Assembly: GCA_951406725.2 (NCBI GenBank)
Contig: OX597815.1
Coordinates: forward strand, 213,156,001 to 213,220,000
Reading direction: 5' to 3'
Source of the DNA: Octopus vulgaris
Taxonomy: Eukaryota
Length of the DNA stretch: 64,000 nucleotides
The notes below the pieces were generated by a model. That model was not told where the DNA came from, searched no databases, and was given only the letters and a program-made list of their open reading frames with translations. A program made the position numbers and the translations under genes. Positions 10,181 to 34,060 of the stretch are shown piece by piece; position 1 is the stretch's first letter, and each line of letters begins with the position of its first letter.

Positions 10181-10307
10181 AATTGTTGCACAGTTAGTAA
10201 TCACCAGTAAATAACTAAGTTAGTGGATTACTAACACGTACATTTAATATCCCTGAGCACTACGGCAGAACAAATAAGAAAATAAGTGTATGCTGTCAAA
10301 GTCAGGA
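10181..10307 (-). ncRNA. Box H/ACA snoRNA-like RNA, divergent copy at the 3' end of the array
   Basis: Hairpin CCTGA...TCAGG, H box ATATTA, hairpin GTAC...GTGC, ACA followed by 3 nt. Intronic and on the host strand. Confidence 0.8.
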
Positions 10308-11171
10308 TCTCTTTCAAAATTCAAATAAGTTAACCATTGAAGCCATCACAATGAATCTCATAACTAGGCTCAACCTTTTAAATCTTCATGGAAATTTCTC
10401 ATTATTGACAATTCAAGCATCATTTTACAATTTGGCACAGAAACGCTTGACAGTTTGAGTAATTTTTTTCTGCCTCACACATTCAGTGAATGACTTCTGC
10501 TACGTTTGACTCGATTTGGGTTTAAGGTAAATTTGAATGTTTTCTTTTTCGGCATGTTGAAAATATTGAAGGAAAATGTCTTAAATTTTATGCTAAATGA
10601 CATTTGAAACACTGGCCGTGAAAATTAAATTGTAAATAAATTTCAGAGTGTTAGAGACTGATGCAAGGACCCCCACAAAAACGAGATAAGGCAGAGATTG
10701 ATTTTAAAAAGTAATTTTTTGCAGATATTGTCCCCAACAAACTCTTGCAAACTGCTACCCTACACAAACACCTAGTTTCTCTCTCCCCACTCACCTCACC
10801 CTACTAAGTACCACCTGGATACCGCATCACCAATATCTATCTCTTTGTCGTAACTACTGATTCATTCTCACTCTCCCTTCAATGAGTAGCAATTGGAGCT
10901 CCTCTACAACAAAGACCTGCTCTTGCCCAAGTTTTGAACCCTTGTGAGCTGCATGGTTGCCTGTGGTGTGGGAAAAGCACCCAGTATACATTGTAACAGG
11001 GTTAGTGTTGAGAAGGACATCCAAGCCCAAGCAGGCACTGGTGGATGATACAATCTTTGGATCCATCAGACCCTGCTGAACTCTCCAGACAATGCCAGCA
11101 AGGAACATAGACATTAAACGATGATTATAAGAGACAGGCATATTATTAGTTGTTGGCAACAGAATAAACAT

Positions 11172-11303
11172 ACATGTAGCACAGTTAGTATATACCAGTA
11201 ACAATTAGATCATAGCCAGTAGATTACTAGCATGTGCACTTACTGTCCCTGAACGCACGGCACAACATATATATATAAATATATGTATGGTTCATAGTCA
11301 GGG
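11172..11303 (-). ncRNA. H/ACA snoRNA-like copy (CTATGAAC subfamily)
   Basis: Two hairpins, H box ACAGTA, ACAtgt. Confidence 0.72.
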
Positions 11304-11594
11304 CTTCTCCCCAATTTCAACTTCTGTTAGAAAAACAGTTTAAAACTTAGCAAAATCTTTTAAGTACATTTCCAATGAAAGGCAATGCAAATGAATATCG
11401 GTTTACATTTCAGATCTACACTATTACTAAATTATTTCATATCATTTATTATCTATTGAAAAAAGAAATGAATTTTAAAGTTTACACACAAAATTTGCCC
11501 AATATAAAAGCAACAAGGTTGAGGAAAGGATTACAGAAAAATTCACAAGCCAATCATCAATATATCAACACATGATAATATTATAATGTACTGA

Positions 11595-11708
11595 CAAACA
11601 TTGAGTAGACACCAGTAACAACTAGAACATACGCAGTAGATTACTAGTAAATGCATCTAATATCTCTAAACTATACAACACAATATCCTTATGCTCTCAA
11701 AGTCAGGG
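11595..11708 (-). pseudogene. H/ACA copy with damaged 3' stem and ACA box (repeated at about 13242, 14889, 16536)
   Basis: H box ATATTA retained, GTGCTACA end deleted. Confidence 0.6.
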
Positions 11709-11859
11709 TTTTTTCAACAAATTTTATAACTGACTTATATGCTACCAAGACCCACACAAAAATGAGAGAAGATTTTGATGAAAAAAAAAGAGATTCTATA
11801 ATAAACCAATGCAGATGGTCATAATATTACTTGCTGACAATAGAATAAAATAAAACAAC

Positions 11860-11985
11860 ACATGTAGCACACTATATGTACCAGTAACAATTAGAATATA
11901 ACCAGTAGATGCATGTGCATTTACTATCCCTAAACATTACGGCATAACAAATAAGAAAATATATGCATGCTGTCAAAAGTTAGGG
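11860..11985 (-). ncRNA. H/ACA snoRNA-like copy (CTTTTGACA subfamily, 5-nt deletion in 3' hairpin)
   Basis: H box ATAGTA, ACAtgt. Confidence 0.68.
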
Positions 11986-12818
11986 GTTTTTCTCCCCCAC
12001 CAAATTTCAATATTTGTCAGAAAAAGTTGAAAACTTAAGAGCAAAATCTCTTATTCTAATGATTGACAATTTTAGTTCCAGATTAACATTCGATGACTTC
12101 CTATTGCGGATGAAGCATTCAAGGATATCTTAATGATGAAAGAGAGTTTGTTTTTTCATTCACAGTTATCATAGGACTAAGAATTAATACTCAAGTGAAA
12201 TCAGTAGCCACTTCTTTAGCCCTTTCGTTACTATATTTCTGACCAAAATACACCCCTCATGAGTTTCAATTATATTCTGCAATGATGAACTCTATCTAAT
12301 CCATGCAGGCATGGAAAAGATGTTAAAACGTGGATGAGTATGATAAATTCATGCAATATAAAGCTTTTAGACAGCAACTACAGGGGTTAGCACCACAAAA
12401 CACTGCCCCAAAATCACATATTGGAAGCATGATAACATAGAAAAGCAAACAAAAAACGACAATGAAAAATAATGAAGATTCAATAATAAACCAATACTGA
12501 TGGCAACAGAATAAACAAACTCCCTTGAATGAGTAGCAATTGGAGCCCCTCTACAACAAAGACCTGCTCTTGCCCAAGTTTTGTACTCTTGTGAGCTGCA
12601 TGGTTGCCTGTGGTGTGGGAAAAGCACCCAGTATACATTGTAACAGGGTTAGTGTTGAGAAGGACATCCAAGCCCAAGCAGGCACTGGTGGATGATACAA
12701 TCTTGGGATCCATCAGACCCTGCTGAACTCTCCAGACAATGCCAGCAAGGAGCATAGACATTAAACGATGATTATGAGAGACAGGCATATTATTAGTTGT
12801 TGGCAACAGAATAAACAT

Positions 12819-12950
12819 ACATGTAGCACAGTTAGTATATACCAGTAACAATTAGATCATAGCCAGTAGATTACTAGCATGTGCACTTACTGTCCCTGAA
12901 CGCACGGCACAACATATATATATAAATATATGTATGGTTCATAGTCAGGG
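12819..12950 (-). ncRNA. H/ACA snoRNA-like copy
   Basis: Duplicate of the 11172 copy at +1647. Confidence 0.72.
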
Positions 12951-13506
12951 CTTCTCCCCAATTTCAACTTCTGTTAGAAAAACAGTTTAAAACTTAGCAA
13001 AATCTTTTAAGTACATTTCCAATGAAAGGCAATGCAAATGAATATCGGTTTACATTTCAGATCTACACTATTACTAAATTATTTCATATCATTTATTATC
13101 TATTGAAAAAAGAAATGAATTTTAAAGTTTACACACAAAATTTGCCCAATATAAAAGCAACAAGGTTGAGGAAAGGATTACAGAAAAATTCACAAGCCAA
13201 TCATCAATATATCAACACATGATAATATTATAATGTACTGACAAACATTGAGTAGACACCAGTAACAACTAGGACATATGCAGTAGATTACTAGTAAATG
13301 CATCTAATATCTCTAAACTATACAACACAATATCCTTATGCTCTCAAAGTCAGGGTTTTTTCAACAAATTTTATAACTGACTTATATGCTACCAAGACCC
13401 ACACAAAAATGAGAGAAGATTTTGATGAAAAAAAAAGAGATTCTATAATAAACCAATGCAGATGGTCATAATATTACTTGCTGACAATAGAATAAAATAA
13501 AACAAC

Positions 13507-13632
13507 ACATGTAGCACACTATATGTACCAGTAACAATTAGAATATAACCAGTAGATGCATGTGCATTTACTATCCCTAAACATTACGGCATAACAAATA
13601 AGAAAATATATGCATGCTGTCAAAAGTTAGGG
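13507..13632 (-). ncRNA. H/ACA snoRNA-like copy
   Basis: Duplicate of the 11860 copy at +1647. Confidence 0.68.
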
Positions 13633-14465
13633 GTTTTTCTCCCCCACCAAATTTCAATATTTGTCAGAAAAAGTTGAAAACTTAAGAGCAAAATCTCTTA
13701 TTCTAATGATTGACAATTTTAGTTCCAGATTAACATTCGATGACTTCCTATTGCGGATGAAGCATTCAAGGATATCTTAATGATGAAAGAGAGTTTGTTT
13801 TTTCATTCACAGTTATCATAGGACTAAGAATTAATACTCAAGTGAAATCAGTAGCCACTTCTTTAGCCCTTTCGTTACTATATTTCTGACCAAAATACAC
13901 CCCTCATGAGTTTCAATTATATTCTGCAATGATGAACTCTATCTAATCCATGCAGGCATGGAAAAGATGTTAAAACGTGGATGAGTATGATAAATTCATG
14001 CAATATAAAGCTTTTAGACAGCAACTACAGGGGTTAGCACCACAAAACACTGCCCCAAAATCACATATTGGAAGCATGATAACATAGAAAAGCAAACAAA
14101 AAACGACAATGAAAAATAATGAAGATTCAATAATAAACCAATACTGATGGCAACAGAATAAACAAACTCCCTTGAATGAGTAGCAATTGGAGCCCCTCTA
14201 CAACAAAGACCTGCTCTTGCCCAAGTTTTGTACTCTTGTGAGCTGCATGGTTGCCTGTGGTGTGGGAAAAGCACCCAGTATACATTGTAACAGGGTTAGT
14301 GTTGAGAAGGACATCCAAGCCCAAGCAGGCACTGGTGGATGATACAATCTTGGGATCCATCAGACCCTGCTGAACTCTCCAGACAATGCCAGCAAGGAGC
14401 ATAGACATTAAACGATGATTATGAGAGACAGGCATATTATTAGTTGTTGGCAACAGAATAAACAT

Positions 14466-14597
14466 ACATGTAGCACAGTTAGTATATACCAGTAACAATT
14501 AGATCATAGCCAGTAGATTACTAGCATGTGCACTTACTGTCCCTGAACGCACGGCACAACATATATATATAAATATATGTATGGTTCATAGTCAGGG
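14466..14597 (-). ncRNA. H/ACA snoRNA-like copy
   Basis: Duplicate of the 11172 copy. Confidence 0.72.
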
Positions 14598-15153
14598 CTT
14601 CTCCCCAATTTCAACTTCTGTTAGAAAAACAGTTTAAAACTTAGCAAAATCTTTTAAGTACATTTCCAATGAAAGGCAATGCAAATGAATATCGGTTTAC
14701 ATTTCAGATCTACACTATTACTAAATTATTTCATATCATTTATTATCTATTGAAAAAAGAAATGAATTTTAAAGTTTACACACAAAATTTGCCCAATATA
14801 AAAGCAACAAGGTTGAGGAAAGGATTACAGAAAAATTCACAAGCCAATCATCAATATATCAACACATGATAATATTATAATGTACTGACAAACATTGAGT
14901 AGACACCAGTAACAACTAGGACATATGCAGTAGATTACTAGTAAATGCATCTAATATCTCTAAACTATACAACACAATATCCTTATGCTCTCAAAGTCAG
15001 GGTTTTTTCAACAAATTTTATAACTGACTTATATGCTACCAAGACCCACACAAAAATGAGAGAAGATTTTGATGAAAAAAAAAGAGATTCTATAATAAAC
15101 CAATGCAGATGGTCATAATATTACTTGCTGACAATAGAATAAAATAAAACAAC

Positions 15154-15279
15154 ACATGTAGCACACTATATGTACCAGTAACAATTAGAATATAACCAGT
15201 AGATGCATGTGCATTTACTATCCCTAAACATTACGGCATAACAAATAAGAAAATATATGCATGCTGTCAAAAGTTAGGG
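15154..15279 (-). ncRNA. H/ACA snoRNA-like copy
   Basis: Duplicate of the 11860 copy. Confidence 0.68.
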
Positions 15280-16112
15280 GTTTTTCTCCCCCACCAAATT
15301 TCAATATTTGTCAGAAAAAGTTGAAAACTTAAGAGCAAAATCTCTTATTCTAATGATTGACAATTTTAGTTCCAGATTAACATTCGATGACTTCCTATTG
15401 CGGATGAAGCATTCAAGGATATCTTAATGATGAAAGAGAGTTTGTTTTTTCATTCACAGTTATCATAGGACTAAGAATTAATACTCAAGTGAAATCAGTA
15501 GCCACTTCTTTAGCCCTTTCGTTACTATATTTCTGACCAAAATACACCCCTCATGAGTTTCAATTATATTCTGCAATGATGAACTCTATCTAATCCATGC
15601 AGGCATGGAAAAGATGTTAAAACGTGGATGAGTATGATAAATTCATGCAATATAAAGCTTTTAGACAGCAACTACAGGGGTTAGCACCACAAAACACTGC
15701 CCCAAAAACACATATTGGAAGCATGATAACATAGAAAAGCAAACAAAAAACGACAATGAAAAATAATGAAGATTCAATAATAAACCAATACTGATGGCAA
15801 CAGAATAAACAAACTCCCTTGAATGAGTAGCAATTGGAGCCCCTCTACAACAAAGACCTGCTCTTGCCCAAGTTTTGTACTCTTGTGAGCTGCATGGTTG
15901 CCTGTGGTGTGGGAAAAGCACCCAGTATACATTGTAACAGGGTTAGTGTTGAGAAGGACATCCAAGCCCAAGCAGGCACTGGTGGATGATACAATCTTGG
16001 GATCCATCAGACCCTGCTGAACTCTCCAGACAATGCCAGCAAGGAGCATAGACATTAAACGATGATTATGAGAGACAGGCATATTATTAGTTGTTGGCAA
16101 CAGAATAAACAT

Positions 16113-16244
16113 ACATGTAGCACAGTTAGTATATACCAGTAACAATTAGATCATAGCCAGTAGATTACTAGCATGTGCACTTACTGTCCCTGAACGCACG
16201 GCACAACATATATATATAAATATATGTATGGTTCATAGTCAGGG
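16113..16244 (-). ncRNA. H/ACA snoRNA-like copy
   Basis: Duplicate of the 11172 copy. Confidence 0.72.
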
Positions 16245-16801
16245 CTTCTCCCCAATTTCAACTTCTGTTAGAAAAACAGTTTAAAACTTAGCAAAATCTT
16301 TTAAGTACATTTCCAATGAAAGGCAATGCAAATGAATATCGGTTTACATTTCAGATCTACACTATTACTAAATTATTTCATATCATTTATTATCTATTGA
16401 AAAAAGAAATGAATTTTAAAGTTTACACACAAAATTTGCCCAATATAAAAGCAACAAGGTTGAGGAAAGGATTACAGAAAAATTCACAAGCCAATCATCA
16501 ATATATCAACACATGATAATATTATAATGTACTGACAAACATTGAGTAGACACCAGTAACAACTAGGACATATGCAGTAGATTACTAGTAAATGCATCTA
16601 ATATCTCTAAACTATACAACACAATATCCTTATGCTCTCAAAGTCAGGGTTTTTTCAACAAATTTTATAACTGACTTATATGCTACCAAGACCCACACAA
16701 AAATGAGAGAAGATTTTGATGAAAAAAAAAAGAGATTCTATAATAAACCAATGCAGATGGTCATAATATTACTTGCTGACAATAGAATAAAATAAAACAA
16801 C

Positions 16802-16927
16802 ACATGTAGCACACTATATGTACCAGTAACAATTAGAATATAACCAGTAGATGCATGTGCATTTACTATCCCTAAACATTACGGCATAACAAATAAGAAA
16901 ATATATGCATGCTGTCAAAAGTTAGGG
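16802..16927 (-). ncRNA. H/ACA snoRNA-like copy
   Basis: Duplicate of the 11860 copy. Confidence 0.68.
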
Positions 16928-17495
16928 GTTTTTCTCCCCCACCAAATTTCAATATTTGTCAGAAAAAGTTGAAAACTTAAGAGCAAAATCTCTTATTCTA
17001 ATGATTGACAATTTTAGTTCCAGATTAACATTCGATGACTTCCTATTGCGGATGAAGCATTCAAGGATATCTTAATGATGAAAGAGAGTTTGTTTTTTCA
17101 TTCACAATTATCATAGGACTAAGAATATTCTAGTGAAATCAGTAGCCACTTCTTTAAACTAAAATGAAAATTAAAAGGACATAATATCAAATATATTTCT
17201 AAGACTCTCTCACAGGATAAACAAGAAATGAAAAGAAAGAAGTATTCATTTAGAGAAAATATTCTACTAGTTAAATAGAAAATATTAGCTAACACAAGAC
17301 AACCCATGGATGCCAGTACCATCTTCAAAAGATTTTCCATTGAGTATCTAGTTTGTTGTTACACACCCTACGTATTGTAATAAAATCAAAAATTTAAAGT
17401 TTACAAAAAGAAATTAGTCAATATAAAAACTATAATAAAGAAGCAATAAAATCCACAAGAAAACAATCAACATGTATCAGTACATGGTAATACTA

Positions 17496-17613
17496 ACATG
17501 TAGCACAGTGAGTAGTAACAACTAGAATATACCCAGTAGATTACTAGCAAGTGCATTTAGTATCCCTAAACTATACGACATAACAAAATATTTGTATGCT
17601 CTCAAGGTCAGGG
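17496..17613 (-). ncRNA. H/ACA snoRNA-like copy (CCTTGAGA subfamily, small deletion)
   Basis: H box ATACTA, ACAtgt. Confidence 0.62.
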
Positions 17614-18893
17614 TTTCTTTCTTTGATTGTATTTTTCTTTCAGCATGTTGAAAACAGAGAGAGAAAATATTCTTTTACTGTAGAGGAGACTTGAAGTAAT
17701 GGTAGTGGAAATGAAAGTGAAAGTAAAGTAATTTATGCCAACAAAGGAAGCAGCTGATAGGATATAAATATTCCAGAGTTTTAATAAATGATACCAGGAC
17801 ACACAAAAAAAGATAACGCACAAGTAAATTTCTAAAAATATTTCTCTCTTTGAACAATAACAGGAAATTATGGTTGAAGAGTCAAACATAGAAGATAATT
17901 AGAAGAGACAGCACTGCAACAGAAAAAGGTATGAAGCCATTGAAGAAATGAAAGCCTTTCTTGTATAAACAATGGAGGTGAAACACCCCAATTCCAACAT
18001 ATGACCAATAAATGTTTTCTGGAAAATACTGTGTACATTCAAGATATGAACCCTATTATTAAAAAGAATATTTTACAAAGAGATTGTGCTTAGTCCTTCA
18101 TAACGGTCATGGGGCAAATGCCTAATTTTGCATAGGACTAGGAAGATAAATGCCTACTGTATGGTGTTTTAGATAGTAATATTTCATATATGTGTGTGTG
18201 TGTATATATATATATATACATATGTACACACACATATGTATACGTATGCAAGTATGTATGTATATATGTAATGTGAGATAATAGTTTCACTATGTATATG
18301 ATATGAAACTATTATCTCACATTACAATAGAGATGTTATTGTTTCACTTTTGACTCATAATACTGAAACAGGCTAAAAGATTGCTCGAGACTCGCATTAG
18401 GCAAGAAGGTGGAAAATTATTTTAGCCCATGACACTCTATAGACCCTATGCAGTGTATGTGTAAAATTTAAATGAAATCGGCTGAGTAGTTCTAGAGTTT
18501 TAGTGATACATACTTTCTCAGCTTTATATGCATAGATATCCTTAGAACTTTGTGCATATGTTTTCATGTACTGACACATGTCCAGCCAAAGAGCAATATA
18601 TTTAGAAACAGGCAAGTGTCGATTACTGGACAGGCCTGCCTTGTAGAAAATCTGCCACAATGAACTTTATCTAATCCATGCAGGCATGGAAAAGATGTTA
18701 AAACGTGGATGAGTATGATAAATTCATGCAATATAAAGCCTTTAGACAGCAACTACAGGGTTTAGCACCACAAAACACTGCCCCAAAAACACCTATTGGA
18801 AGCATGATAACATAGAAAAGCAAACAAAAAACGACAATGAAAAATAATGAAGATTCAATAATAAACCAATACTGATGGCAACAGAATAAACAA

Positions 18894-19023
18894 ACATGTA
18901 GCACAGTTAGTGTATACCAGTAACAATTAGATCATAGCCAGTCGATTACTAGCATGTGCATTTACTGTCCCTGACCACACGGCATAACAAATAAGAAAAT
19001 ATAAGTATGGGACATAGTTAGGG
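18894..19023 (-). ncRNA. H/ACA snoRNA-like copy (CTATGTCC subfamily)
   Basis: H box ACAGTA, ACAtgt, both stems intact. Confidence 0.72.
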
Positions 19024-19168
19024 TTTTCTTTTCCTTCCAAATTTCAATATTTGTTGGAAAAACAGTTTAAAACCTTTGATAACAGCAAATTCTTCCAAGT
19101 ATATTCCTACCAAATAGCAATGCAAATGAACCATCACTAAATTATAATTCCACACTAAATTACTTCAT

Positions 19169-19510
19169 ATCATCATCATCATCATCGTCGTTTAACGTCC
19201 GTTCTCCATGCTAGCATGGGTTGGACGGTTCGACCGGGGTTCTGGGAAGCCAGAAGGCTGCACCAGGCTCCAGTCTAATCTGGCAATGTTTCTACAGCTG
19301 GATGCCCTTCCTAACGTCAACCACTCCGTGAGTGTAGTGGGTGCTTTTTACGTGCCACCTGCACAGGTGCCAGGCGGGGCTGGCAACGGCCACGGTCAGA
19401 TTGGTGTATTTTATGTGCCACCGGCACGGAAGCCAGTCGAGGCGGTGCTGGCATCGGCCACGAGTCGGATAGTGCTTTTTACGTACCACCAGACCAGGGA
19501 TCCTGGCTGG
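19169..19510 (-). mobile_element. RTE-tail retroposon (SINE or short LINE 3' end) inserted in one array unit; same family at about 20607, 40520, 40983, 55825, 57055, 57595, 63898
   Basis: Matches the 3' end of the 37409 LINE (GGCACGTAAAAAGCACC repeats, CCATGCTAGCATGG, (GAT)n). Absent from sister units. Confidence 0.85.
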
Positions 19511-20051
19511 TGTTCTGTAGAAGAAATCTATTTCTTCTATTCAAAAATATTTACAAGACCCTCTATCAGTATAATAAGAGATATTTATTGAAGCTAAAAA
19601 TATCCTAGACTAAATATGGTTAATCATGGATCACATGATGCTTTTCAAAAAATTAATCCATAGAGTATCTAATTTCATTTTACTCAGTCTCTAATGTGAT
19701 GAACTTAAATATTACAAAGAGAAATTACCCAATATAAAAACTATAACAAACTGAGGGAGAAATATATTTGGAAACAGACATGTGTTGATTACTGGACAGG
19801 CATCTCTTGTAGAAATGATAAACTTTATCTAATCCATGCAGGCATGGAAAAGATGTTAAAACGTGGATGAGTATGATAAATTCATGCAATATAAAGCTTT
19901 TAGACAGCAACTACAGAGGTTAGCACCACAAAACACTGCCCCAAAAACACCTATTGGAAGCATGATAACATAGAAAAGCAAACAAAAAACGACAATGAAA
20001 AATAATGAAGATTCAATAATAAACCAATACTGATGGCAACAGAATAAACAA

Positions 20052-20183
20052 ACATGTAGCACAGTTAGTGTATACCAGTAACAATTAGATCACAGCCAGT
20101 CGATTACTAGCATGTGCATTTACTGTCCCTGAACGCACGGCACAACATATATATATAAATATATGTATGGTTCATTGTCAGGG
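20052..20183 (-). ncRNA. H/ACA snoRNA-like copy (CAATGAAC variant)
   Basis: H box ACAGTA, ACAtgt. Confidence 0.7.
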
Positions 20184-21243
20184 CTTCTCCCCAATTTCAA
20201 CTTCTGTTAGAAAAACAGTTTAAAACTTAGCAAAATCTTTTAAGTACATTTCCAATGAAAGGCAATGCAAATGAATATCGGTTTACATTTCAGATCTACA
20301 CTATTTCTAAATTATTTCATATCATTTATTATCTAAATGTTTAGTAGGTGGAATTATTATTTCAAAATGATCTTTTAAAACAATTGCAGCATGGAAGGTG
20401 TTTATAAGCCATTTAAGAAACACACAAAAACCGTTAGATTCACTTCAACATTTAAATTTAATTTGCCAAAATATTTTCGTCACTCTGAGAGCACGACCTG
20501 TTCACTGACAAAATTCCATGCTGCATCTGAGAAAGTAACAGTTAGTACGTGGTATGTATGTGTGTATGTATGTAATTTAGCATTAGACATCTAGTTCAAA
20601 TATTCTCATCATCATCATCATTTAACGTCCGCTCTCCATGCTAGCATGGGTTGGACGGTTCAACTGGGGTCTGGGGAGCCCGAAAGCTGCACCAGTCCAG
20701 TCAGATCTGGCAGTGTTTAAACTTGCCAGACCCAACCTCTTACACTTATCTCTAAACTATACAACACAATATCCTTATGCTCTTAAAGTCAGGGATTTTT
20801 CAACAAATTTTATAACTGACTTATATGCTGCCAAGACCCTCACAAAAATGAGAGAAGATTTTGAAGAGCAGTTTTCCCAAACAGATGCATGAAAAATACA
20901 GCAGCCCAATAGAAAGTGGTATGACACCATTAAAGAAATGAAAGCCATTCTTGTATGTACTATGAGATAGAAAAATATCTATTTGGAAATCGGTGAAGCT
21001 GTAGAAAATTTGTGCCAATGTAATTTTGCAGGTCTGCAAAATAGGACAAATTCATGCAATAAAAAGCTTCCTGACAGCAACTACAAGGGTTAGTACCAGA
21101 AAAAACTGCTGAAAAAATTTCCATTGAAATCATGACAACATGGAAAAGACATAAAAATGATGAACAAAAAAAAGAGATTCTATAATAAACCAATGCAGAT
21201 GGTCATAATATTACTTGCTGACAATAGAATAAAATAAAACAAC

Positions 21244-21369
21244 ACATGTAGCACACTATATGTACCAGTAACAATTAGAATATAACCAGTAGATGCATGT
21301 GCATTTACTATCCCTAAACATTACGGCATAACAAATAAGAAAATATATGCATGCTGTCAAAAGTTAGGG
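21244..21369 (-). ncRNA. H/ACA snoRNA-like copy
   Basis: 11860-type, H box ATAGTA, ACA. Confidence 0.68.
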
Positions 21370-21901
21370 TTTTTCTCCCCCACCAAATTTCAATATTTGT
21401 CAGAAAAAGTTGAAAACTTAAGAGCAAAATCTCTTATTCTAATGATTGACAATTTTAGTTCCAGATTAACATTCGATGACTTCATATTGCAGATGAAGCA
21501 TTCAAGGATATCTTAATGATGAAAGAGAGTTTGTTTTTTCATCCACAATTATCATAGGACTAAGAATTAATACTCAAGTGAAATCAGTAGCCACTTCTTT
21601 AGCCCTTTCGTTACTATATTTCTGACCAAAATACACCCCTCATGAGTTTCAATTATATTCTGCTATGATGAACTTTATCTAATCCATGCAGGCATGGAAA
21701 AAAAGTTAAAACGTGGATGAGTATGATAAATTCATGCAATATAAAGCTTTTAGACAGCAACTACAGGGTTTAGCCCCACAAAACACTGCCCCAAAAACAC
21801 ATATTGGAAGCATGATAACATAGAAAAGCAAACAAAAAACGACAATGAAAAATAATGAAGATTCAATAATAAACCAATACTGATGGCAACAGAATAAACA
21901 A

Positions 21902-22031
21902 ACATGTAGCACAGTTAGTGTATACCAGTAACAATTAGATCATAGCCAGTCGATTACTAGCATGTGCATTTACTGTCCCTGACCACACGGCATAACAAAT
22001 AAGAAAATATAAGTATGGGACATAGTTAGGG
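21902..22031 (-). ncRNA. H/ACA snoRNA-like copy
   Basis: 18894-type. Confidence 0.72.
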
Positions 22032-22738
22032 TTTTCTTTTCCTTCCAAATTTCAATTTTTGTTGGAAAATCAGTTTAAAACCTTTGATAACAGCAAATTC
22101 TTTCGAATATATTCCCACCAAATAGCAATGCAAATGAACTAGCACTAAATTATAATTCCACACTAAATTACTTTGTGTTTTTAATTATCTAATGATGTGT
22201 TCTGTAGAAGAAATCTATTTCTTCTATTCAAAAATATTTACAAGACCCTCTATCGGTATAATAAGAGATATTTATTGAAGCTAAAAATATCCTAGACTAA
22301 ATATGGTTAATCATGGATCACATGATGCTTTTCAAAAAATTAATCCATAGAGTATCTAATTTCATTTTACTCAGTCTCTAATGTGATGAACTTAAATATT
22401 ACAAAGAGAAATTACCCAATATAAAAACTATAATAAACTGAGAGAGAAATATATTTGGAAACAGGCATGTATTGATTACTGGACAGGCATCTCTTGTAGA
22501 AATGATAAACTTTATCTAATCCATGCAGGCATGGAAAAGATGTTAAAACGTGGATGAGTATGATAAATTCATGCAATATAAAGCTTTTAGACAGCAACTA
22601 CAGGGGTTAGCACCACAAAACACTGCCCCAAAAACACATATTGGAAGCATGATAACATAGAAAAGCAAACAAAAAACGACAATGAAAAATAATGAAGATT
22701 CAATAATAAACCAATACTGATGGCAACAGAATAAACAA

Positions 22739-22870
22739 ACATGTAGCACAGTTAGTGTATACCAGTAACAATTAGATCACAGCCAGTCGATTACTAGCAT
22801 GTGCATTTACTGTCCCTGAACGCACGGCACAACATATATATATAAATATATGTATGGTTCATTGTCAGGG
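22739..22870 (-). ncRNA. H/ACA snoRNA-like copy
   Basis: 20052-type. Confidence 0.7.
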
Positions 22871-23847
22871 CTTCTCCCCAATTTCAACTTCTGTTAGAAA
22901 AACAGTTTAAAACTTAGCAAAATCTTTTAAGTACATTTCCAATGAAAGGCAATGCAAATGAATATCGGTTTACACTTCAGATCTACACTATTTCTAAATT
23001 ATTTCATATCATTTATTATCTAAATGTTTAGTAGGTGGAATTATTATTTCAAAATGATCTTTTAAAACAATTGCAGCATGGAAGGTGTTTATAAGCCATT
23101 TAAGAAACACACAAAAACCGTTAGATTCACTTCAACATTTAAATTTAATTTGCCAAAATATTTTCGTCACTCTGAGAGCACGACCTGTTCACTGACAAAA
23201 TTCCATGCTGTATCTGAGAAAGTAACAGTTAGTACATGGTATGTATGTGTGTATGTATGTAATTTAGCATTAGACATCTAGTTCAAATATTCTAGCTCTT
23301 TTATATTCAAACTTGCCAGACCCAACCTCTTACACTTATCTCTAAACTATACAACACAATATCCTTATGCTCTCAAAGTCAGGGATTTTTCAACAAATTT
23401 TATAACTGACTTATATGCTGCCAAGACCCTCACAAAAATGAGAGAAGATTTTGAAGAGCAGTTTTCCCAAACAGATGCATGAAAAATACAGCAGCCCAAT
23501 AGAAAGTGGTATGACACCATTAAAGAAATGAAAGCCATTCTTGTATGTACTATGAGATAGAAAAATATCTATTTGGAAATCGGTGAAGCTGTAGAAAATT
23601 TGTGCCAATGTAATTTTGCAGGACCCATGCAAACATGGGTCTGCAAAATAGGACAAATTCATGCAATAAAAAGCTTCCTGACAGCAACTACAAGGGTTAG
23701 TACCAGAAAAAACTGCTGAAAAAATTTCCATTGAAATCATGACATGGAAAAGACATAAAAATGATGAACAAAAAAAAGAGATTCTATAATAAACCAATGC
23801 AGATGGTCATAATATTACTTGCTGACAATAGAATAAAATAAAACAAC

Positions 23848-23973
23848 ACATGTAGCACACTATATGTACCAGTAACAATTAGAATATAACCAGTAGATGC
23901 ATGTGCATTTACTATCCCTAAACATTACGGCATAACAAATAAGAAAATATATGCATGCTGTCAAAAGTTAGGG
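23848..23973 (-). ncRNA. H/ACA snoRNA-like copy
   Basis: 11860-type. Confidence 0.68.
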
Positions 23974-24506
23974 GTTTTTCTCCCCCACCAAATTTCAATA
24001 TTTGTCAGAAAAAGTTGAAAACTTAAGAGCAAAATCTCTTATTCTAATGATTGACAATTTTAGCTCCAGATTAACATTCGATGGCTTCATATTGCGGATG
24101 AAGCATTCAAGGATATCTTAATGATGAAAGAGAGTTTGTTTTTTCATTCACAGTTATCATAGGACTAAGAATTAATACTCAAGTGAAATCAGTAGCCACT
24201 TCTTTAGCCCTTTCGTTACTATATTTCTGACCAAAATACACCCCTCATGAGTTTCAATTATATTCTGCTATGATGAACTTTATCTAATCCATGCAGGCAT
24301 GGAAAAAAAGTTAAAATGTGGATGAGTATGATAAATTCATGCAATATAAAGCTTTTAGACAGCAACTACAGAGGTTAGCACCACAAAACACTGCCCCAAA
24401 AACACATATTGGAAGCATGATAACATAGAAAAGCAAACAAAAAACGACAATGAAAAATAATGAAGATTCAATAATAAACCAATACTGATGGCAACAGAAT
24501 AAACAA

Positions 24507-24636
24507 ACATGTAGCACAGTTAGTGTATACCAGTAACAATTAGATCATAGCCAGTCGATTACTAGCATGTGCATTTACTGTCCCTGACCACACGGCATAA
24601 CAAATAAGAAAATATAAGTATGGGACATAGTTAGGG
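24507..24636 (-). ncRNA. H/ACA snoRNA-like copy
   Basis: 18894-type. Confidence 0.72.
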
Positions 24637-25343
24637 TTTTCTTTTCCTTCCAAATTTCAATTTTTGTTGGAAAATCAGTTTAAAACCTTTGATAACAGCA
24701 AATTCTTTCGAATATATTCCCACCAAATAGCAATGCAAATGAACTAGCACTAAATTATAATTCCACACTAAATTACTTTGTGTTTTTAATTATCTAATGA
24801 TGTGTTCTGTAGAAGAAATCTATTTCTTCTATTCAAAAATATTTACAAGACCCTCTATCGGTATAATAAGAGATATTTATTGAAGCTAAAAATATCCTAG
24901 ACTAAATATGGTTAATCATGGATCACATGATGCTTTTCAAAAAATTAATCCATAGAGTATCTAATTTCATTTTACTCAGTCTCTAATGTGATGAACTTAA
25001 ATATTACAAAGAGAAATTACCCAATATAAAAACTATAATAAACTGAGAGAGAAATATATTTGGAAACAGGCATGTATTGATTACTGGACAGGCATCTCTT
25101 GTAGAAATGATAAACTTTATCTAATCCATGCAGGCATGGAAAAGATGTTAAAACGTGGATGAGTATGATAAATTCATGCAATATAAAGCTTTTAGACAGC
25201 AACTACAGGGGTTAGCACCACAAAACACTGCCCCAAAAACACATATTGGAAGCATGATAACATAGAAAAGCAAACAAAAAACGACAATGAAAAATAATGA
25301 AGATTCAATAATAAACCAATACTGATGGCAACAGAATAAACAA

Positions 25344-25475
25344 ACATGTAGCACAGTTAGTGTATACCAGTAACAATTAGATCACAGCCAGTCGATTACT
25401 AGCATGTGCATTTACTGTCCCTGAACGCACGGCACAACATATATATATAAATATATGTATGGTTCATTGTCAGGG
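25344..25475 (-). ncRNA. H/ACA snoRNA-like copy
   Basis: 20052-type. Confidence 0.7.
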
Positions 25476-26451
25476 CTTCTCCCCAATTTCAACTTCTGTT
25501 AGAAAAACAGTTTAAAACTTAGCAAAATCTTTTAAGTACATTTCCAATGAAAGGCAATGCAAATGAATATCGGTTTACACTTCAGATCTACACTATTTCT
25601 AAATTATTTCATATCATTTATTATCTAAATGTTTAGTAGGTGGAATTATTATTTCAAAATGATCTTTTAAAACAATTGCAGCATGGAAGGTGTTTATAAG
25701 CCATTTAAGAAACACACAAAAACCGTTAGATTCACTTCAACATTTAAATTTAATTTGCCAAAATATTTTCGTCACTCTGAGAGCACGACCTGTTCACTGA
25801 CAAAATTCCATGCTGCATCTGAGAAAGTAACAGTTAGTACATGGTATGTATGTGTGTATGTATGTAATTTAGCATTAGACATCTAGTTCAAATATTCTAG
25901 CTCTTTTATATTCAAACTTGCCAGACCCAACCTCTTACACTTATCTCTAAACTATACAACACAATATCCTTATGCTCTCAAAGTCAGGGATTTTTCAACA
26001 AATTTTATAACTGACTTATATGCTGCCAAGACCCTCACAAAAATGAGAGAAGATTTTGAAGAGCAGTTTTCCCAAACAGATGCATGAAAAATACAGCAGC
26101 CCAATAGAAAGTGGTATGACACCATTAAAGAAATGAAAGCCATTCTTGTATGTACTATGAGATAGAAAAATATCTATTTGGAAATCGGTGAAGCTGTAGA
26201 AAATTTGTGCCAATGTAATTTTGCAGGACCCATGCAAACATGGGTCTGCAAAATAGGACAAATTCATGCAATAAAAAGCTTCCTGACAGCAACTACAAGG
26301 GTTAGTACCAGAAAAAACTGCTGAAAAAATTTCCATTGAAATCATGACATGGAAAAGACATAAAAATGATGAACAAAAAAAGAGATTCTATAATAAACCA
26401 ATGCAGATGGTCATAATATTACTTGCTGACAATAGAATAAAATAAAACAAC

Positions 26452-26577
26452 ACATGTAGCACACTATATGTACCAGTAACAATTAGAATATAACCAGTAG
26501 ATGCATGTGCATTTACTATCCCTAAACATTACGGCATAACAAATAAGAAAATATATGCATGCTGTCAAAAGTTAGGG
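26452..26577 (-). ncRNA. H/ACA snoRNA-like copy
   Basis: 11860-type. Confidence 0.68.
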
Positions 26578-27110
26578 GTTTTTCTCCCCCACCAAATTTC
26601 AATATTTGTCAGAAAAAGTTGAAAACTTAAGAGCAAAATCTCTTATTCTAATGATTGACAATTTTAGCTCCAGATTAACATTCGATGGCTTCATATTGCG
26701 GATGAAGCATTCAAGGATATCTTAATGATGAAAGAGAGTTTGTTTTTTCATTCACAGTTATCATAGGACTAAGAATTAATACTCAAGTGAAATCAGTAGC
26801 CACTTCTTTAGCCCTTTCGTTACTATATTTCTGACCAAAATACACCCCTCATGAGTTTCAATTATATTCTGCTATGATGAACTTTATCTAATCCATGCAG
26901 GCATGGAAAAAAAGTTAAAACGTGGATGAGTATGATAAATTCATGCAATATAAAGCTTTTAGACAGCAACTACAGGGGTTAGCACCACAAAACACTGCCC
27001 CAAAAACACATATTGGAAGCATGATAACATAGAAAAGCAAACAAAAAACGACAATGAAAAATAATGAAGATTCAATAATAAACCAATACTGATGGCAACA
27101 GAATAAACAA

Positions 27111-27240
27111 ACATGTAGCACAGTTAGTGTATACCAGTAACAATTAGATCATAGCCAGTCGATTACTAGCATGTGCATTTACTGTCCCTGACCACACGGC
27201 ATAACAAATAAGAAAATATAAGTATGGGACATAGTTAGGG
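27111..27240 (-). ncRNA. H/ACA snoRNA-like copy
   Basis: 18894-type. Confidence 0.72.
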
Positions 27241-27946
27241 TTTTCTTTTCCTTCCAAATTTCAATTTTTGTTGGAAAATCAGTTTAAAACCTTTGATAAC
27301 AGCAAATTCTTTCGAATATATTCCCACCAAATAGCAATGCAAATGAACTAGCACTAAATTATAATTCCACACTAAATTACTTTGTGTTTTTAATTATCTA
27401 ATGATGTGTTCTGTAGAAGAAATCTATTTCTTCTATTCAAAAATATTTACAAGACCCTCTATCGGTATAATAAGAGATATTTATTGAAGCTAAAAATATC
27501 CTAGACTAAATATGGTTAATCATGGATCACATGATGCTTTTCAAAAAATTAATCCATAGAGTATCTAATTTCATTTTACTCAGTCTCTAATGTGATGAAC
27601 TTAAATATTACAAAGAGAAATTACCCAATATAAAAACTATAATAAACTGAGAGAGAAATATATTTGGAAACAGGCATGTATTGATTACTGGACAGGCATC
27701 TCTTGTAGAAATGATAAACTTTATCTAATCCATGCAGGCATGGAAAAGATGTTAAAACGTGGATGAGTATGATAAATTCATGCAATATAAAGCTTTTAGA
27801 CAGCAACTACAGGGTTAGCACCACAAAACACTGCCCCAAAAACACATATTGGAAGCATGATAACATAGAAAAGCAAACAAAAAACGACAATGAAAAATAA
27901 TGAAGATTCAATAATAAACCAATACTGATGGCAACAGAATAAACAA

Positions 27947-28076
27947 ACATGTAGCACAGTTAGTGTATACCAGTAACAATTAGATCATAGCCAGTCGATT
28001 ACTAGCATGTGCATTTACTGTCCCTGACCACACGGCATAACAAATAAGAAAATATAAGTATGGGACATAGTTAGGG
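27947..28076 (-). ncRNA. H/ACA snoRNA-like copy
   Basis: 18894-type. Confidence 0.72.
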
Positions 28077-28784
28077 TTTTCTTTTCCTTCCAAATTTCAA
28101 TATTTGTTAGAAAAACAGTTTAAAACCTTTGATAACAGCAAATTCTTCCAAGTATATTCCCACCAAATAGCAATGCAAATGAATTATCACTAAATTATAA
28201 TTCCACACTAAATTACTTCATATATTTTTTATTATCTAATGATGTGTTCTGTAGAAGAAATCTATTTCTTCTATTCAAAAATATTTACAAGACCCTCTAT
28301 CAGTATAATAAGAGATATTTATTGAAGCTAAAAATATCCTAGACTAAATATGGTTAATCATGGATCACATAATGCTTTTCAAAAATTAATCCATAGAGTA
28401 TCTAATTTCATTTTACTCAGTCTCTAATGTGATGAACTTAAATATTACAAAGAGAAATTACCCAATATAAAAACTATAACAAACTGAGGGAGAAATATAT
28501 TTGGAAACAGGCATGTGTTGATTACTGGACAGGCATCTCTTGTAGAAATGATAAACTTTATCTAATCCATGCAGGCATGGAAAAGATGTTAAAACGTGGA
28601 TGAGTATGATAAATTCAAGCAATATAAAGCTTTTAGACAGCAACTACAGGGTTTAGCACCACAAAACACTGCCCCAAAAACACCTTTTGGAAGCATGATA
28701 ACATAGAAAAGCAAACAAAAAACGACAATGAAAAATAATGAAGATTCAATGATAAACCAATACTGATGGCAACAGAATAAACAA

Positions 28785-28914
28785 ACATGTAGCACAGTTA
28801 GTATATACCAGTAACAATTAGATCATAGCCAGTCGATTACTAGCATGTGCATTTACTGTCCCTGACCACACGGCATAACAAATAAGAAAATATAAGTATG
28901 GGACATAGTTAGGG
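28785..28914 (-). ncRNA. H/ACA snoRNA-like copy
   Basis: 18894-type. Confidence 0.72.
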
Positions 28915-29264
28915 TTTTCTTTTCCTTCCAAATTTCAATTTTTGTTGGAAAATCAGTTTAAAACCTTTGATAACAGCAAATTCTTTCGAATATATTCCCA
29001 CCAAATAGCAATGCAAATGAACTATCACTAAATTATAATTCCACACTAAATTACTTCGTGTTTTTAATTATCTAATGATGTGTTCTGTAAAAACATTTAC
29101 AAGACCCTCTTTCAGTATGAGGAATGAAAATAAGAGATATTCATTGAAGCTAAAAATATTCTACAGGCTTAAGACATGAATCATGGATCACATGGAGATT
29201 TTCAAAAAATTAATCCATGGAGTATCTAATTTCATTTCACTCAGTCTGTATTGTGATGAACTTA

Positions 29265-29391
29265 ACATGTAGCACATTGAATAGTAACCAATAACAACAA
29301 GAATATATCCAGTAGGTTACTAGCAAGTGCATTTTTAATAGCACTTAACAATACAACATAACAAAATTTTTGTATGCTCTCAAAGTCAGGG
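29265..29391 (-). pseudogene. Diverged H/ACA copy with degraded H box and 5' stem
   Basis: ACA retained, no clean ANANNA, basal stem mismatched. Confidence 0.55.
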
Positions 29392-29727
29392 CTTCTTTCA
29401 ACTAACTTTATAACTGACACCAAGTGGAAAGAATGTGAGTGTATGTGTGTGTGTGTGTGTATATATATATGTATGTGTATGTGTTGTGTGTGTATGTATG
29501 TATGCAGGCTTGTTTTCATGTCTCAAGATTGTATGATAGTTGTGATTAAGTTTCATTTTCATGTAAACGACACCATTTGTATCCAGTTCTCCATGAAAAC
29601 ATGTCCAAAGAGGAACATTATATTTGGAAACATACAAGTGTTGATGACAGGATAGGCACCTGTTGCAGGTAACATTACAACTAATACAGATGGTCATAAT
29701 ATTACCTGCTGAGAACAGAATAAAATC

Positions 29728-29859
29728 ACATGTAGCACAGTTAGTGTATACCAGTAACAATGAGAATATAACCAACAGATTACTAGCATGTGCATTTACT
29801 ATCCCTAAACATTACGGCAAAACAAATAAGAAAATATATGTATGCTGTCAAAGTTAGGG
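29728..29859 (-). ncRNA. H/ACA snoRNA-like copy (CTTTGACA subfamily)
   Basis: H box ATAGTA, ACAtgt. Confidence 0.75.
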
Positions 29860-30169
29860 CTTCTTTTCCAAATTGTAATATTTGTAAGAAAAACAAAGGG
29901 CAAAAGTCTTTTAAATACATTTCTTACAATTTTCATTGTTTCTTTTCGTTTATTATCTAATGATAAAGAAATAATGATATGTTCAGTACAAGGAATACAA
30001 AAATATTCACTAGACTCTCCATCAGCATGAATAAAAAATGAAAATAAGGGATATTCATTGACAAAGATATTTTCCAGGCTAAATAAAACAAATCACCCAA
30101 TATAAAAGCTAGAATAAACCGTGGATGAGGAGTGAGTTACAAGAAAATGATAAAATACATAGTAATATG

Positions 30170-30442
30170 TGGAGGCGCAATGGCCTAGTGGTTAGGGCAG
30201 TGGACTCACGGTTTCGATTCCCAGACCGGGTGTTGTAAGTGTTTATTGAGCGAAAACACCTAAAAAGCTCCACGAGGCTCCGGCAGGGGTGGTGATCCCT
30301 GCTGTACTCTTTCACCACTCTTTCGTCAGTTGGCCTGCTCGCTTAGCCAGCGGGGTGGCGTCATTCGAAGGCTAAAACAATGCAAACGCATTGTGACCAG
30401 CGATGTGTAACTACATCTGATGGACTGGTCGGTCACGTGATG
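30170..30442 (+). mobile_element. tRNA-derived SINE with probable TSD
   Basis: TGGCCTAGTGG and GTTTCGATTCC boxes, flanked by ACATAGTAATAT/ACATAATAATAT. Confidence 0.75.
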
Positions 30443-30470
30443 ACATAATAATATTACTATGCAGTGACAA

Positions 30471-30600
30471 GCATGTAGCACCGAGTAGTCACCAGTAACA
30501 ACTAGAAGATGACCAGTAGATTACTAGCATGTGCATTTACTATCCCTAAACATTACGGCATAACAAATAAGAAAATATATGTATGCTGTCAAAGTTAGGG
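30471..30600 (-). ncRNA. H/ACA snoRNA-like copy (CTTTGACA subfamily)
   Basis: CCCTAA/TTAGGG stem, H box ATAGTA, GCAC/GTGC and CTAGTAA/TTACTGG stems, ACAtgc. Confidence 0.8.
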
Positions 30601-31405
30601 CTCTTCCCCCCACCAAATTTCAATGTTAGTAAAAAGGTTTAAACTTTAATAAGAGCAAAATCTGTTATTCTAATGAATGACAATTTAAGCTCCACATGAG
30701 CACTAAATCATTCCACATTATTCATTATCTATGATAGGTTCAGCAAAAGGAATTTATTTCTTCTATTCTACAATATTTACTGGACCCTCTGCAGGAAGAA
30801 TAAATGAAAATAGGGAATAGTCATTTGCAAAAAAAAAAAAAAAAAAAAAAGACTAAATAAGACAATGAATCATGGGTCACATAATGATTAACTCATTCTT
30901 TTATTTGCTCCAGTCATTTGACCATGGCCATGCTGGAGCACCACCTTTAGTCGAGCAAATCGACTGTAGGACTTATTCTCCCTAAGCCCAGTACCTATTC
31001 TATCGGTCTCTTTTGCTGAAGCGCTAAGTTACAGGGACGCAAACACACCAGCATTGGTTGTTAAGCGATGTTGGGAATGGGGGGGAAGAGACAGACACAG
31101 ACATATGCATATATATGACAGGCTTCTTTTCAGTTTCCGTCTACCAAATCCACTCACAACACTTTGGAAGGGCCGAGGCTATAGTAGAAGACACTTGCCC
31201 GAGGTGCCATGCAGTGGGACTGAACCTGGAACCATGTAGTTGGTAAACAAGCTATTTACCACACAGCCACTCTGATGAACTGAATTTTCAAGTTTACAAA
31301 GAAATATTACACAATATAAAATCTATAATCTGAGAGTAGAGAGCGTTTACAATAAAATCCACAAGAAAATGATCAATACATGGTAATACTACCATGTGGC
31401 GACAA

Positions 31406-31528
31406 ACATGTAGCACCGAGTAGTCACCAGTAACAACTAGAATATACCCAGTAGATTACTAGTAAGTGCATTTAATATCCCTAAACTATACGACATAACA
31501 AAATATTTGTATGCTCTCAAGGTCAGGG
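31406..31528 (-). ncRNA. H/ACA snoRNA-like copy (CCTTGAGA subfamily)
   Basis: H box ATATTA, ACAtgt. Confidence 0.75.
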
Positions 31529-32623
31529 TTTCTCTCAACACACTAAATGACTGACGCAAACTGGACTTAAATTCAAACCTTTTTTATCTCTCAGCATTTT
31601 AAAAATATAGAAAGAAAATAATTTCAATTTTACACTAGAAGACACTTTAAGCAATGGTAGTGAAAATCAAAGAAACTGAAAATAAAGAAACTTATGCACA
31701 CAAATGAAGCATTTGATACAATATTGTAAATATCCCAAACTTTTAAGAAATGATGCCAGGACACACAGAAATGAGATTAGGCAGGAATAGATTTTTAAAA
31801 ATACTCCTCTCTGAATATCTAAATAAAATTATGGCTGAGGAGACAAACACACTAGATATATGAAAGGTATAGTACTCCAATAGAATATCATATGAAACCA
31901 TTAAAGAAATATGCATTTATTATCTCAAAACATTCAGCCAAAATATGAAAATATATGTATGATTTAAAGACAAGGAATTTATATGTGAACCCCAAAATAT
32001 TCTATTAAAATGTCCTTGAATACAAATGATTTTTTACAATTATATAGCTCTGTGTTTTTCTTTTAGAAACAGCAATATTTTAGAGATTTTGATTTCAAAC
32101 AAATCTTTTTTAATAAACAACACAAATATGAAAGCAATAGTAATTTCTTCAAACTAAAACGAAAGTTAAAGGAATATAATACCAAAAATATTTACCAGAC
32201 TCTCAGTATAAAGAAATGAAAATAAAGGAATATTCATTTAGACAAAATAAAATTTACAGGCTAAATAAAATGTTAGCTAGCACAAAAAATGCATTCCATG
32301 GATCCTACAATCATCTTTGATGAAAGATTGATTCACTGAGTATCTAACATAGTTTTACACACCCTGTCTATTGTAATAAAGTTCACACAAATCAACATAA
32401 GTCCATTTTCATGCTGGCATTGGTTGGAGATTTGGACTGCAGCTGGCAACTCTCAAGACTGCCAAGCTCTCTATCTGCTTTGACATAGTTTTGTAGGGCT
32501 GGATGCCCCTTCCTCACACCAAAAATAAAATAATGCAACAAAGGTGATGGAGGTGTTACAATAAATTCTACAAGGCAATGATCAATAGCAGTCAGTACAC
32601 GGTCATATTACCATGTATCAATA

Positions 32624-32755
32624 AACTGTAGCACACTGAATAGTCACCAGTAACAACTAGAAGATGACCAGTAGATTACTAGCATGTGCATTTACTATCC
32701 CTAAACATTACGGCATAACAAATAAGAAAATATATGTATGCTGTCAAAGTTAGGG
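32624..32755 (-). ncRNA. H/ACA snoRNA-like copy (CTTTGACA subfamily)
   Basis: H box ATAGTA, ACAgtt. Confidence 0.8.
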
Positions 32756-32779
32756 GACTTTGTTGGCTAGACAATAGTA

Positions 32780-33955: not shown

Positions 33956-33956
33956 T

Positions 33957-34011: not shown

Positions 34012-34060
34012 AAATCTGTCAAACTCCAGTATTTGTTGAGAAAGAAGTTGAAATACATAC

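Follow-up and report, generated by a model that had tools for sequence, protein, structure and literature searches.

An apparently undescribed array of H/ACA-like elements inside an octopus eIF3j intron: one probable switch of target, and two young pockets between drift and targeting

Does a tandem array of guide-like elements in the genome of Octopus vulgaris supply new pseudouridylation guides, or do its guide pockets drift on a kept scaffold? The question is raised by a 64,000-nucleotide (nt) stretch of contig OX597815.1 (assembly GCA_951406725.2, positions 213,156,001 to 213,220,000 of the forward strand), hereafter the window, whose minus strand carries many H/ACA-shaped elements. A first, sequence-only reading held that the pockets had split into at least four subfamilies while boxes and stems were kept, and that the array may be generating guides with new ribosomal RNA (rRNA), small nuclear RNA (snRNA) or messenger RNA (mRNA) targets. 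The H/ACA array is real and apparently undescribed; it holds one probable switch of target, and its two young pockets stand between drift and targeting. We think it fairly probable that the 31 elements descend from one ancestor, that the two old pocket types guide two 28S uridines, and that the two young types drift.

Architecture and copy history of the array

A profile search of the window found 31 full H/ACA-shaped elements of 117-132 nt, and a covariance model agrees. The array also holds three half copies and two weak relics (31888-31975 and 33897-34014; E 0.006 and 0.014 with the covariance model), and everything lies on the minus strand, from 10181 to ~34014. Elements are named here by their first position in the window. 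The full copies reduce to 14 distinct sequences, and the folds show two hairpins with a hinge and a tail. The H box ANANNA stands immediately 3' of the 5' hairpin in 30 of the 31 full copies, 14 nt from the top of the pocket, and is broken in 29265. The ACA box is placed one base past the stem in 27 of 31, and the four 11592-type copies have none. Paired positions of the stems were able to pair in 92.6% of 394 cases, compared with 27-45% when the partners were slid. The idea that boxes and stems were kept stands insofar as both boxes are intact in 26 of 31 elements; it does not extend to the five with one box gone, to seven 11860-type copies that lack 5 nt of the 3' upper stem, or to type 4, whose 5' stems contain A-C and U-U mismatches.

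All four 5' pocket classes described earlier were recovered. The GACA type (CTTTGACA/CGTA(A,G)TG) has 11 copies, namely 10181, 29728, 30471, 32624 and seven of 11860 type with one extra T. The GAGA type (C(C,T)TTGAGA/(C,T)GTAT(A,T)G) has seven full copies, which are 17496, 31406, four of 11592 type and the additional copy 29265, and the three half copies carry the same pocket type. Type 3 (C(T,A)ATGAAC/CCGTGCGT) and type 4 (CTATGTCC/CCGTGTGG) have seven and six copies, respectively. The two classes of 3' right strand, TGA(C,T)TA(C,T)T and TATA(C,T)ACTAAC, are also both present and cut across the 5' classes; element 29728, for example, joins a GACA 5' pocket to a type 3/4 3' strand.

Because most copies sit in near-identical blocks, the copy number reflects recent block duplication, and about ten lineages evidently underlie the 31 copies. 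Types 3 and 4 form one clade in the tree (96/92), near the GACA copies, and GAGA forms a separate clade (98/98). The trees of the 5' and 3' hairpins disagree, and type 3b combines a type-3 5' side with a type-4 3' side, as unequal crossing-over would produce. Such exchange would have multiplied entire blocks and swapped 3' halves. Elements 30471-30600 and 32624-32755 differ at 2 of 127 positions, yet their 200-nt flanks are unalignable, which may reflect recent gene conversion or strong constraint. In organism B, the second left-pocket position of one GACA-type copy reads C, like intact GAGA, in a low-depth contig of run X15 over 28870-28900; this may be an error or a conversion.

The whole array lies in sense within one GT..AG intron of eIF3j, 25,150 nt long, and the flanking exons are consecutive (profile positions 92-126 and 138-167 of Pfam PF08597). 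The pockets were compared with the rule for H/ACA guides, which places them 14-16 nt from the box with at least eight pairs around the target U: the GACA pocket reaches 11-14 pairs at 14 nt and the GAGA pocket 14 pairs at 16 nt, and types 3 and 4 reach the required number of pairs, mostly not above chance. The elements likely work like box H/ACA guides, as small nucleolar RNA (snoRNA) genes of one ancestor.

Predicted targets and retrocopies of the old pocket types

Targets were taken from the same genome (2.8 Gb) and comprised 18S, 5.8S and 28S rRNA and the snRNAs U1, U2, U4, U5 and U6. Four rule sets were applied, with 1520 uridines scanned in one energy-rule scan, and the chance level was given by shuffled pockets (100, 120 or 150 trials per scan). 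Positions in rRNA run from the Rfam-defined starts in L017. Among seven other ribosomal DNA (rDNA) stretches, U3923 and U3800 were covered and identical in two, and U3359 was covered in full in two and in part in three. A further 18S copy (L048, G000 C28) is 95.3% identical to the main unit and has no 28S in the next 7 kb; it may be a variant or a pseudogene. The U1, U2, U5, U4 and U6 genes form local multi-copy clusters (G000 C18, C3, C23, C25, C4, C1). None of the five snRNAs stood out for the 5' pockets or gave a top 5' match. The CAB box of small Cajal body-specific RNAs (scaRNAs) is UGAG, and no UGAG occurs in the loops of the 14 sequences, so the elements do not read as scaRNAs.

Every scanned GACA pocket had 28S U3923 as its top match, in five scans. 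The 5' pocket would pair 7+4(+3) bases around this uridine, with seven Watson-Crick pairs on the left and four pairs, a mismatch and three pairs on the right, 14 nt from the H box. U3923 lies in the P-loop region, ten bases past the start of a GGGG run, and falls, as does U3359 (below), on a consensus U column of the Rfam large-subunit (LSU) model. Across the GACA scans, shuffled pockets were as good in 1-9% of trials (5/120, 7/150 and 9/100 for 30471; 2/150 and 3/100 for 10181). The pattern of change at the pairing columns is stronger evidence for U3923 than these scores. The 11 core pairing columns have no change over five GACA lineages, compared with 39 changes in 107 other columns (4.0 expected in the core, P=0.018). 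Of the two pocket changes in 10181, one is on the mismatch and the other turns a G-U pair into G-C, leaving the U3923 pairing unbroken.

In four scans the intact GAGA pocket of 31406 had the 28S helix-69 uridine U3359 as its top match (p=0.010 under strict rules). At a spacing of 16 nt, the pocket would form 8+6 pairs there once two basal pairs of its upper stem open. The accessible part of one source on H/ACA guides gives a minimum of eight pairs and describes flexibility on the substrate side, and does not address opening on the guide side (PMC6049503). Helix 69 is modified at Am2256, Psi2258, 2260, 2264 and 2266, and yeast Psi2264 equals human Psi3747 (PMC2794176, in the part available). 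Because the spacing of these sites matches, U3359 should be the equivalent of that pseudouridine (PMC2794176). The GAGA element is constrained, since 31406 and 17496 differ at 4 of 118 element positions and at 43 of 252 flank positions (p=9e-5). GACA and GAGA fit different 28S uridines, which suggests one target switch after duplication, and to this extent the idea of new guides is partly supported, for the two old types. Within 31406-31528, the left pocket, the adjacent stem strand and the 3' right strand are complementary to 18S 35-42, 27-31 and 19-26, respectively; no canonical pocket geometry joins the three segments, and the complementarity may be chance.

The 3' hairpin is likely structural, not guiding, because its left pocket strand is 3 nt long or closed on the right strand, variability peaks in its right strand (1.67 changes per column), and the rRNA/snRNA scan gave the 3' pockets of intact copies no target above chance. 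Shuffles were as good in 93, 86, 97, 19, 81, 61 and 3 per 100 trials, the last value belonging to the broken copy 29265, and an 8-nt match to 18S 19-26 has hardly any left arm.

Nine dispersed retrocopies, a lower bound, were found in the genome, eight from 31406 and one (L019) from 32624. Element and flank have mutated alike in them (49/544 vs 47/664, p=0.24), and they can therefore serve as a neutral control. The retrocopies carry intron flank and, where traceable, a neighbouring repeat resembling a short interspersed element (SINE) as their tail; the tail is found in L019 and in seven of the eight copies of 31406, and L055 ends before it. Relative to the hairpin base, four of the eight begin between -1 and +10; the 5' loop holds the starts of two more, and the last two begin 10 nt past the element. 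L019 starts 9 nt in, so that five of the nine begin at the predicted 5' end. The 271 bases upstream are in none of the eight (P ~1e-3 under uniform truncation). The simplest reading points to reverse transcription of a 5'-trimmed, 3'-extended precursor, for the old types. The RNAs would be cut from their shared intron with the 5' end trimmed first, because the retrocopies begin at the hairpin base and continue through the 3' flank. No retrocopies of types 3 and 4 were found, which is weak evidence. Two independent retrocopies, L056 and L057 (G000 C6, C20), have the same start base (parent position 31396), 10 nt past the 31406 element. A hairpin of 8 bp with a loop of 4 nt has its foot there and may be a processing signal. 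A similar hairpin after the ACA is present in 32624 and 17496 and absent in types 3 and 4.

Young pocket types and the competing explanations

Types 3 and 4 lost one base from each pocket strand and opened a basal G-C pair, which again yields an 8/8 pocket at 14 nt. Type 3 matches 28S U3800 best, with 7+4+2 pairs at a 14-nt spacing, and type 4 matches 28S U3544 best, with 7 + 2/bulge/5 pairs. Depending on the rule set, 2-46% of shuffled pockets are as good. For types 3b, 3a and 4, respectively, shuffles were as good in 3, 9 and 39 of 120 trials in one scan, in 2, 25 and 22 of 150 in the 1520-uridine scan, where the best match of 3b was U2987, and in 26, 46 and 10 of 100 under flexible rules. 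An exact joint target pattern for types 3 and 4, which left wobble pairs and spliced RNA outside, had 0 matches in the genome and 5 for the reversed control. The proposal of new rRNA, snRNA or mRNA targets is accordingly narrowed to predicted 28S sites, with no snRNA and with mRNA addressed by this one exact genome pattern. Between types 3 and 4, the pockets differ at 4 of 14 positions and the flanks at 30 of 139 (p=0.51). Redundancy would have freed the two types to change, and drift on a kept scaffold is the likely reading, favoured over new targeting. Neutral decay, which the sequence-only reading named as its alternative, fits these two types as well, and the GACA pairing positions show constraint. 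In a comparison of the kind that it proposed as a check, of pockets with stems and spacers, the GACA core is unchanged and the type 3/4 pockets stand above the stems and at about the flank rate.

Two short self-complementarities touch on the origin of the young pockets. As would be expected from template switching, type 4 (18894-19023) has a new left pocket that repeats, in reverse complement, 6 nt at its own junction of stem and H box, and the new left pocket of type 3 (11172-11303) does so for 5 nt of the right arm of that type; a simple simulation puts chance at 0.035 and 0.10, respectively.

Several results nevertheless speak against plain drift and against the old-pocket assignments, and the other explanations have to be weighed with them. 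It is doubtful that lineage-specific 28S uridines near the L1 stalk (U3800, U3544) have working new guides in types 3 and 4 and that the array is a continuing source of guides, although two deletions and an opened pair restored the canonical 8/8, 14-nt geometry and pocket columns changed more often than stem columns (8/17 vs 4/25, p=0.04). With 4-5 substitutions per 17 sites, the pockets are also mildly above the per-lineage rate of 0.10-0.12 (P=0.02-0.14), the sole pocket change from 3a to 3b adds a pair to the U3800 match, and relative to the Rfam LSU model U3800 is part of an insertion, and the consensus base at U3544 is G. These points are set against the frequency of equally good shuffles under flexible rules, a pocket divergence equal to that of the flanks, and best matches that shift, 3b to U2987 and type 4 from 18S U1013 or 28S U591 to U3544; type 4 also has two further stem mismatches and a less open pocket. 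Contigs of organism C contain type 3b and an unchanged type-4 5' hairpin, all seven differences of the type-4 contig lying in the flank, and a contig of organism B has four differences over the part of type 4 that it covers. However, organism C is too close for conservation to mean much, because many exact 31-mers are common to it and this genome. Since both organisms are close, the presence of the types there dates them slightly and shows no selection. The fuller version, in which one H/ACA gene gave rise to four working guides, for the conserved U3923 and U3359 and for the octopus-specific U3800 and U3544 near the L1 stalk, seems to us rather doubtful as well.

The old pockets face a different challenge, namely that GACA alone guides, that GAGA and the young types decayed and that the helix-69 match is chance, GAGA being perhaps a one-base variant of the U3923 guide whose fit is lost, or else directed at 18S U32. 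Under energy rules the U3359 match is equalled by 8-19% of shuffles (10/120, 22/150 and 19/100), the fit needs the 16-nt spacing, and the first scan gave U3359 for the copies without ACA and missed it for 31406. The ACA-less GAGA copies score better on 18S U32, the top match of the 11592 type (6/100 shuffles as good), five of the seven full GAGA copies have lost a box, and the parent 31406 alone has no significant constraint since retroposition (3/116 vs 8/134, p=0.23). We nonetheless hold this explanation to be unlikely: 31406 and 17496 have identical 5' hairpins between flanks that are 15-19% different, the letters separating the intact GAGA from the GACA pocket mostly convert mismatches or wobbles into helix-69 pairs, and 31406 left eight retrocopies. 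In addition, a search of the genome for an rDNA variant with a GAGA-matching flank at the U3923 site had 0 matches, and yeast and human are known to carry a pseudouridine at the site equivalent to U3359 (PMC2794176, in the part available). For GACA itself, gene conversion could account for part of the constancy (30471 vs 32624), and no paper was found that shows pseudouridine at the U3923 site, although supplements or databases may list an equivalent one; a literature search also gave no modification map of this animal. The fly snoRNA Psi28S-3091 is presumably the guide of what would be the equivalent site, for which the papers searched gave no confirmation. When four types, several geometries and four rule sets are corrected for, none of the target matches taken singly remains significant. 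At the far end, a structured intronic repeat that forms no stable H/ACA ribonucleoprotein particles (RNPs), with an incidental or ancestral guide look, would agree with the lack of Rfam matches (0 at the gathering threshold in 64 kb, and no element match below E=2 in 29200-32800) and with covariation no better than shuffles (2 of 29 pairs changed on both sides; 124/500 shuffles). It is very improbable, given that the element is constrained relative to its flanks, that both boxes are well placed, that the target-pairing arms are unchanged and that retrocopies begin at the hairpin base. Two guiding old pockets and two drifting young ones remain our preferred explanation.

The locus, its precedents and its meaning

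Coordinates of the array and its host gene are collected in Table 1. AG..GT-bounded stretches of 16-20 nt had suggested micro-exons between elements, which are unsupported: four contig joints lack splice ends, and the retrocopies retain the AG..GT-bounded stretch unspliced. Contigs of three possible RNA runs over 28450-29420 cover element and flank alike and are uninformative on expression. Spacer 31270-31336 and homologous spacers such as 19697-19755 contain, on the plus strand, TGATGA ... CTGA with short terminal complementarity; they look C/D-box-like, but are antisense to eIF3j. A broken reverse-transcriptase fragment (37379-38640, plus strand, Pfam RVT_1), likely from a long interspersed element (LINE), lies in an earlier eIF3j intron. 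An MMS22L-like gene with two very long open frames (51350-60203, plus strand; 394 and 778 aa; Pfam MMS22L_N/C) stands head to head with eIF3j.

Table 1 Features of the array and of its eIF3j host gene in the window
Feature	Position	Strand	Basis or remark
Most diverged GACA-type element; U3923 pairing kept	10181..10307	-	
1647-bp block, ~3.8 tandem copies, three elements each	10873..17156		copies 99.6% identical
Four type-3a elements (11172, 12819, 14466, 16113)	11172..16244	-	132 nt each
Four GAGA-type elements without ACA box (near 11592, 13239, 14886, 16533)	11592..16649	-	likely pseudogenes
Seven GACA-type elements (11860, 13507, 15154, 16802, 21244, 23848, 26452)	11860..26577	-	5-nt deletion in 3' upper stem
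GAGA-type element; 5' hairpin as in 31406	17496..17613	-	deletion in 3' right strand
Six type-4 elements (18894, 21902, 24507, 27111, 27947, 28785)	18894..28914	-	130 nt each
~2600-bp blocks and 837-bp blocks with types 3b, 4, GACA-deletion and half copies	19510..29265		98% and 94%, respectively
Three type-3b elements (20052, 22739, 25344)	20052..25475	-	132 nt each
Three half copies, GAGA 5' hairpin only (near 20747, 23337, 25942)	20721..25994	-	
GAGA-type element, H box and lower stem broken	29265..29391	-	likely pseudogene
GACA-type element with type 3/4 3' hairpin	29728..29859	-	near kin of young types
GACA-type element, intact	30471..30600	-	predicted guide for 28S U3923
SINE-like repeat downstream of 31406, tail of its retrocopies	30860..31272 (approximate)	-	label from abundance and A/B-box-like head, not from database
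GAGA-type element, intact	31406..31528	-	predicted guide for 28S U3359; parent of eight dispersed retrocopies
GACA-type element, intact	32624..32755	-	parent of one dispersed retrocopy (L019)
eIF3j host intron, GT..AG	8911..34060	-	Pfam PF08597 on flanking exons and splice sites
eIF3j coding exon upstream of array	34061..34169	-	Pfam PF08597 E=2e-7
Earlier eIF3j exons	45802-45820, 45528-45601, 37042-37102, 36032-36120	-	frame and splice sites; two scanned singly without Pfam match
eIF3j coding exon downstream of array; further exons near 7447-7520, 6712-6816	8810..8910	-	Pfam PF08597 E=1e-4, 1e-3, 0.14

We found no description in the literature of this locus or of cephalopod H/ACA RNAs, and a metagenome pattern scan for the element had 0 matches. 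The SNORD115/116 arrays are C/D RNAs in repeated introns of non-coding hosts, whereas this array is H/ACA, sits in one intron of a coding gene and has predicted rRNA targets. The two are alike in having subfamilies and partial tandem duplications, and in guide elements that change while the boxes stay (PMC11028025, in the part available). With box H/ACA guide snoRNAs as described in the accessible part of PMC6049503, the elements share the hairpin-hinge-hairpin-tail order, the ANANNA and ACA boxes, a bipartite 5' pocket with at least eight predicted pairs and an intronic position in a translation-factor gene; unlike them, they have no Rfam family, a usable pocket in the 5' hairpin only and 31 copies in one intron. 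The predicted GAGA target is the helix-69 uridine guided by yeast snR3 (25S Psi2264; PMC2794176), but no sequence homology to snR3 was shown, and the GAGA pocket seems to be paralogous to a guide that serves a different site. Intronic H/ACA clusters of Drosophila likewise have several H/ACA genes per intron (PMC3089462, in the part available); the octopus array is larger, with multi-gene blocks and four pocket types of one family. As in the platypus snoRTE, the dispersed retrocopies fuse an H/ACA snoRNA head to a retroposon tail; high-copy self-amplification was not seen, the nine copies found here, a lower bound, comparing with almost 40,000, and the tail is a neighbouring SINE-like repeat reached through ~120 nt of intron (PMC4233971, PMC11028025, as far as available). 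Gain and loss of targets after duplication and snoRNA retroposition are ideas already present in the same two sources (PMC11028025, PMC4233971).

The usual rule in animals is one snoRNA per intron (PMC11028025, in the part available), and this locus, against it, would need the release of many snoRNAs from a single intron; the retrocopy starts hint where the precursor is cut. The suggestion of a second RNA-modification expansion beside A-to-I editing is not borne out, as four pocket types from about ten lineages at one locus are not comparable to cephalopod editing in scale and nothing links the two. Target gain by guide snoRNAs is usually inferred across distant species. Here, what is presumably the parent stands in one genome together with a paralogue of changed target, two young pockets, pseudogenes and retrocopies that evolve neutrally, and the four named 28S uridines make the target question testable with one pseudouridine map. 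If U3800 and U3544 were modified by types 3 and 4, lineage-specific rRNA segments would be gaining pseudouridines from a tandem array, seen in the act.

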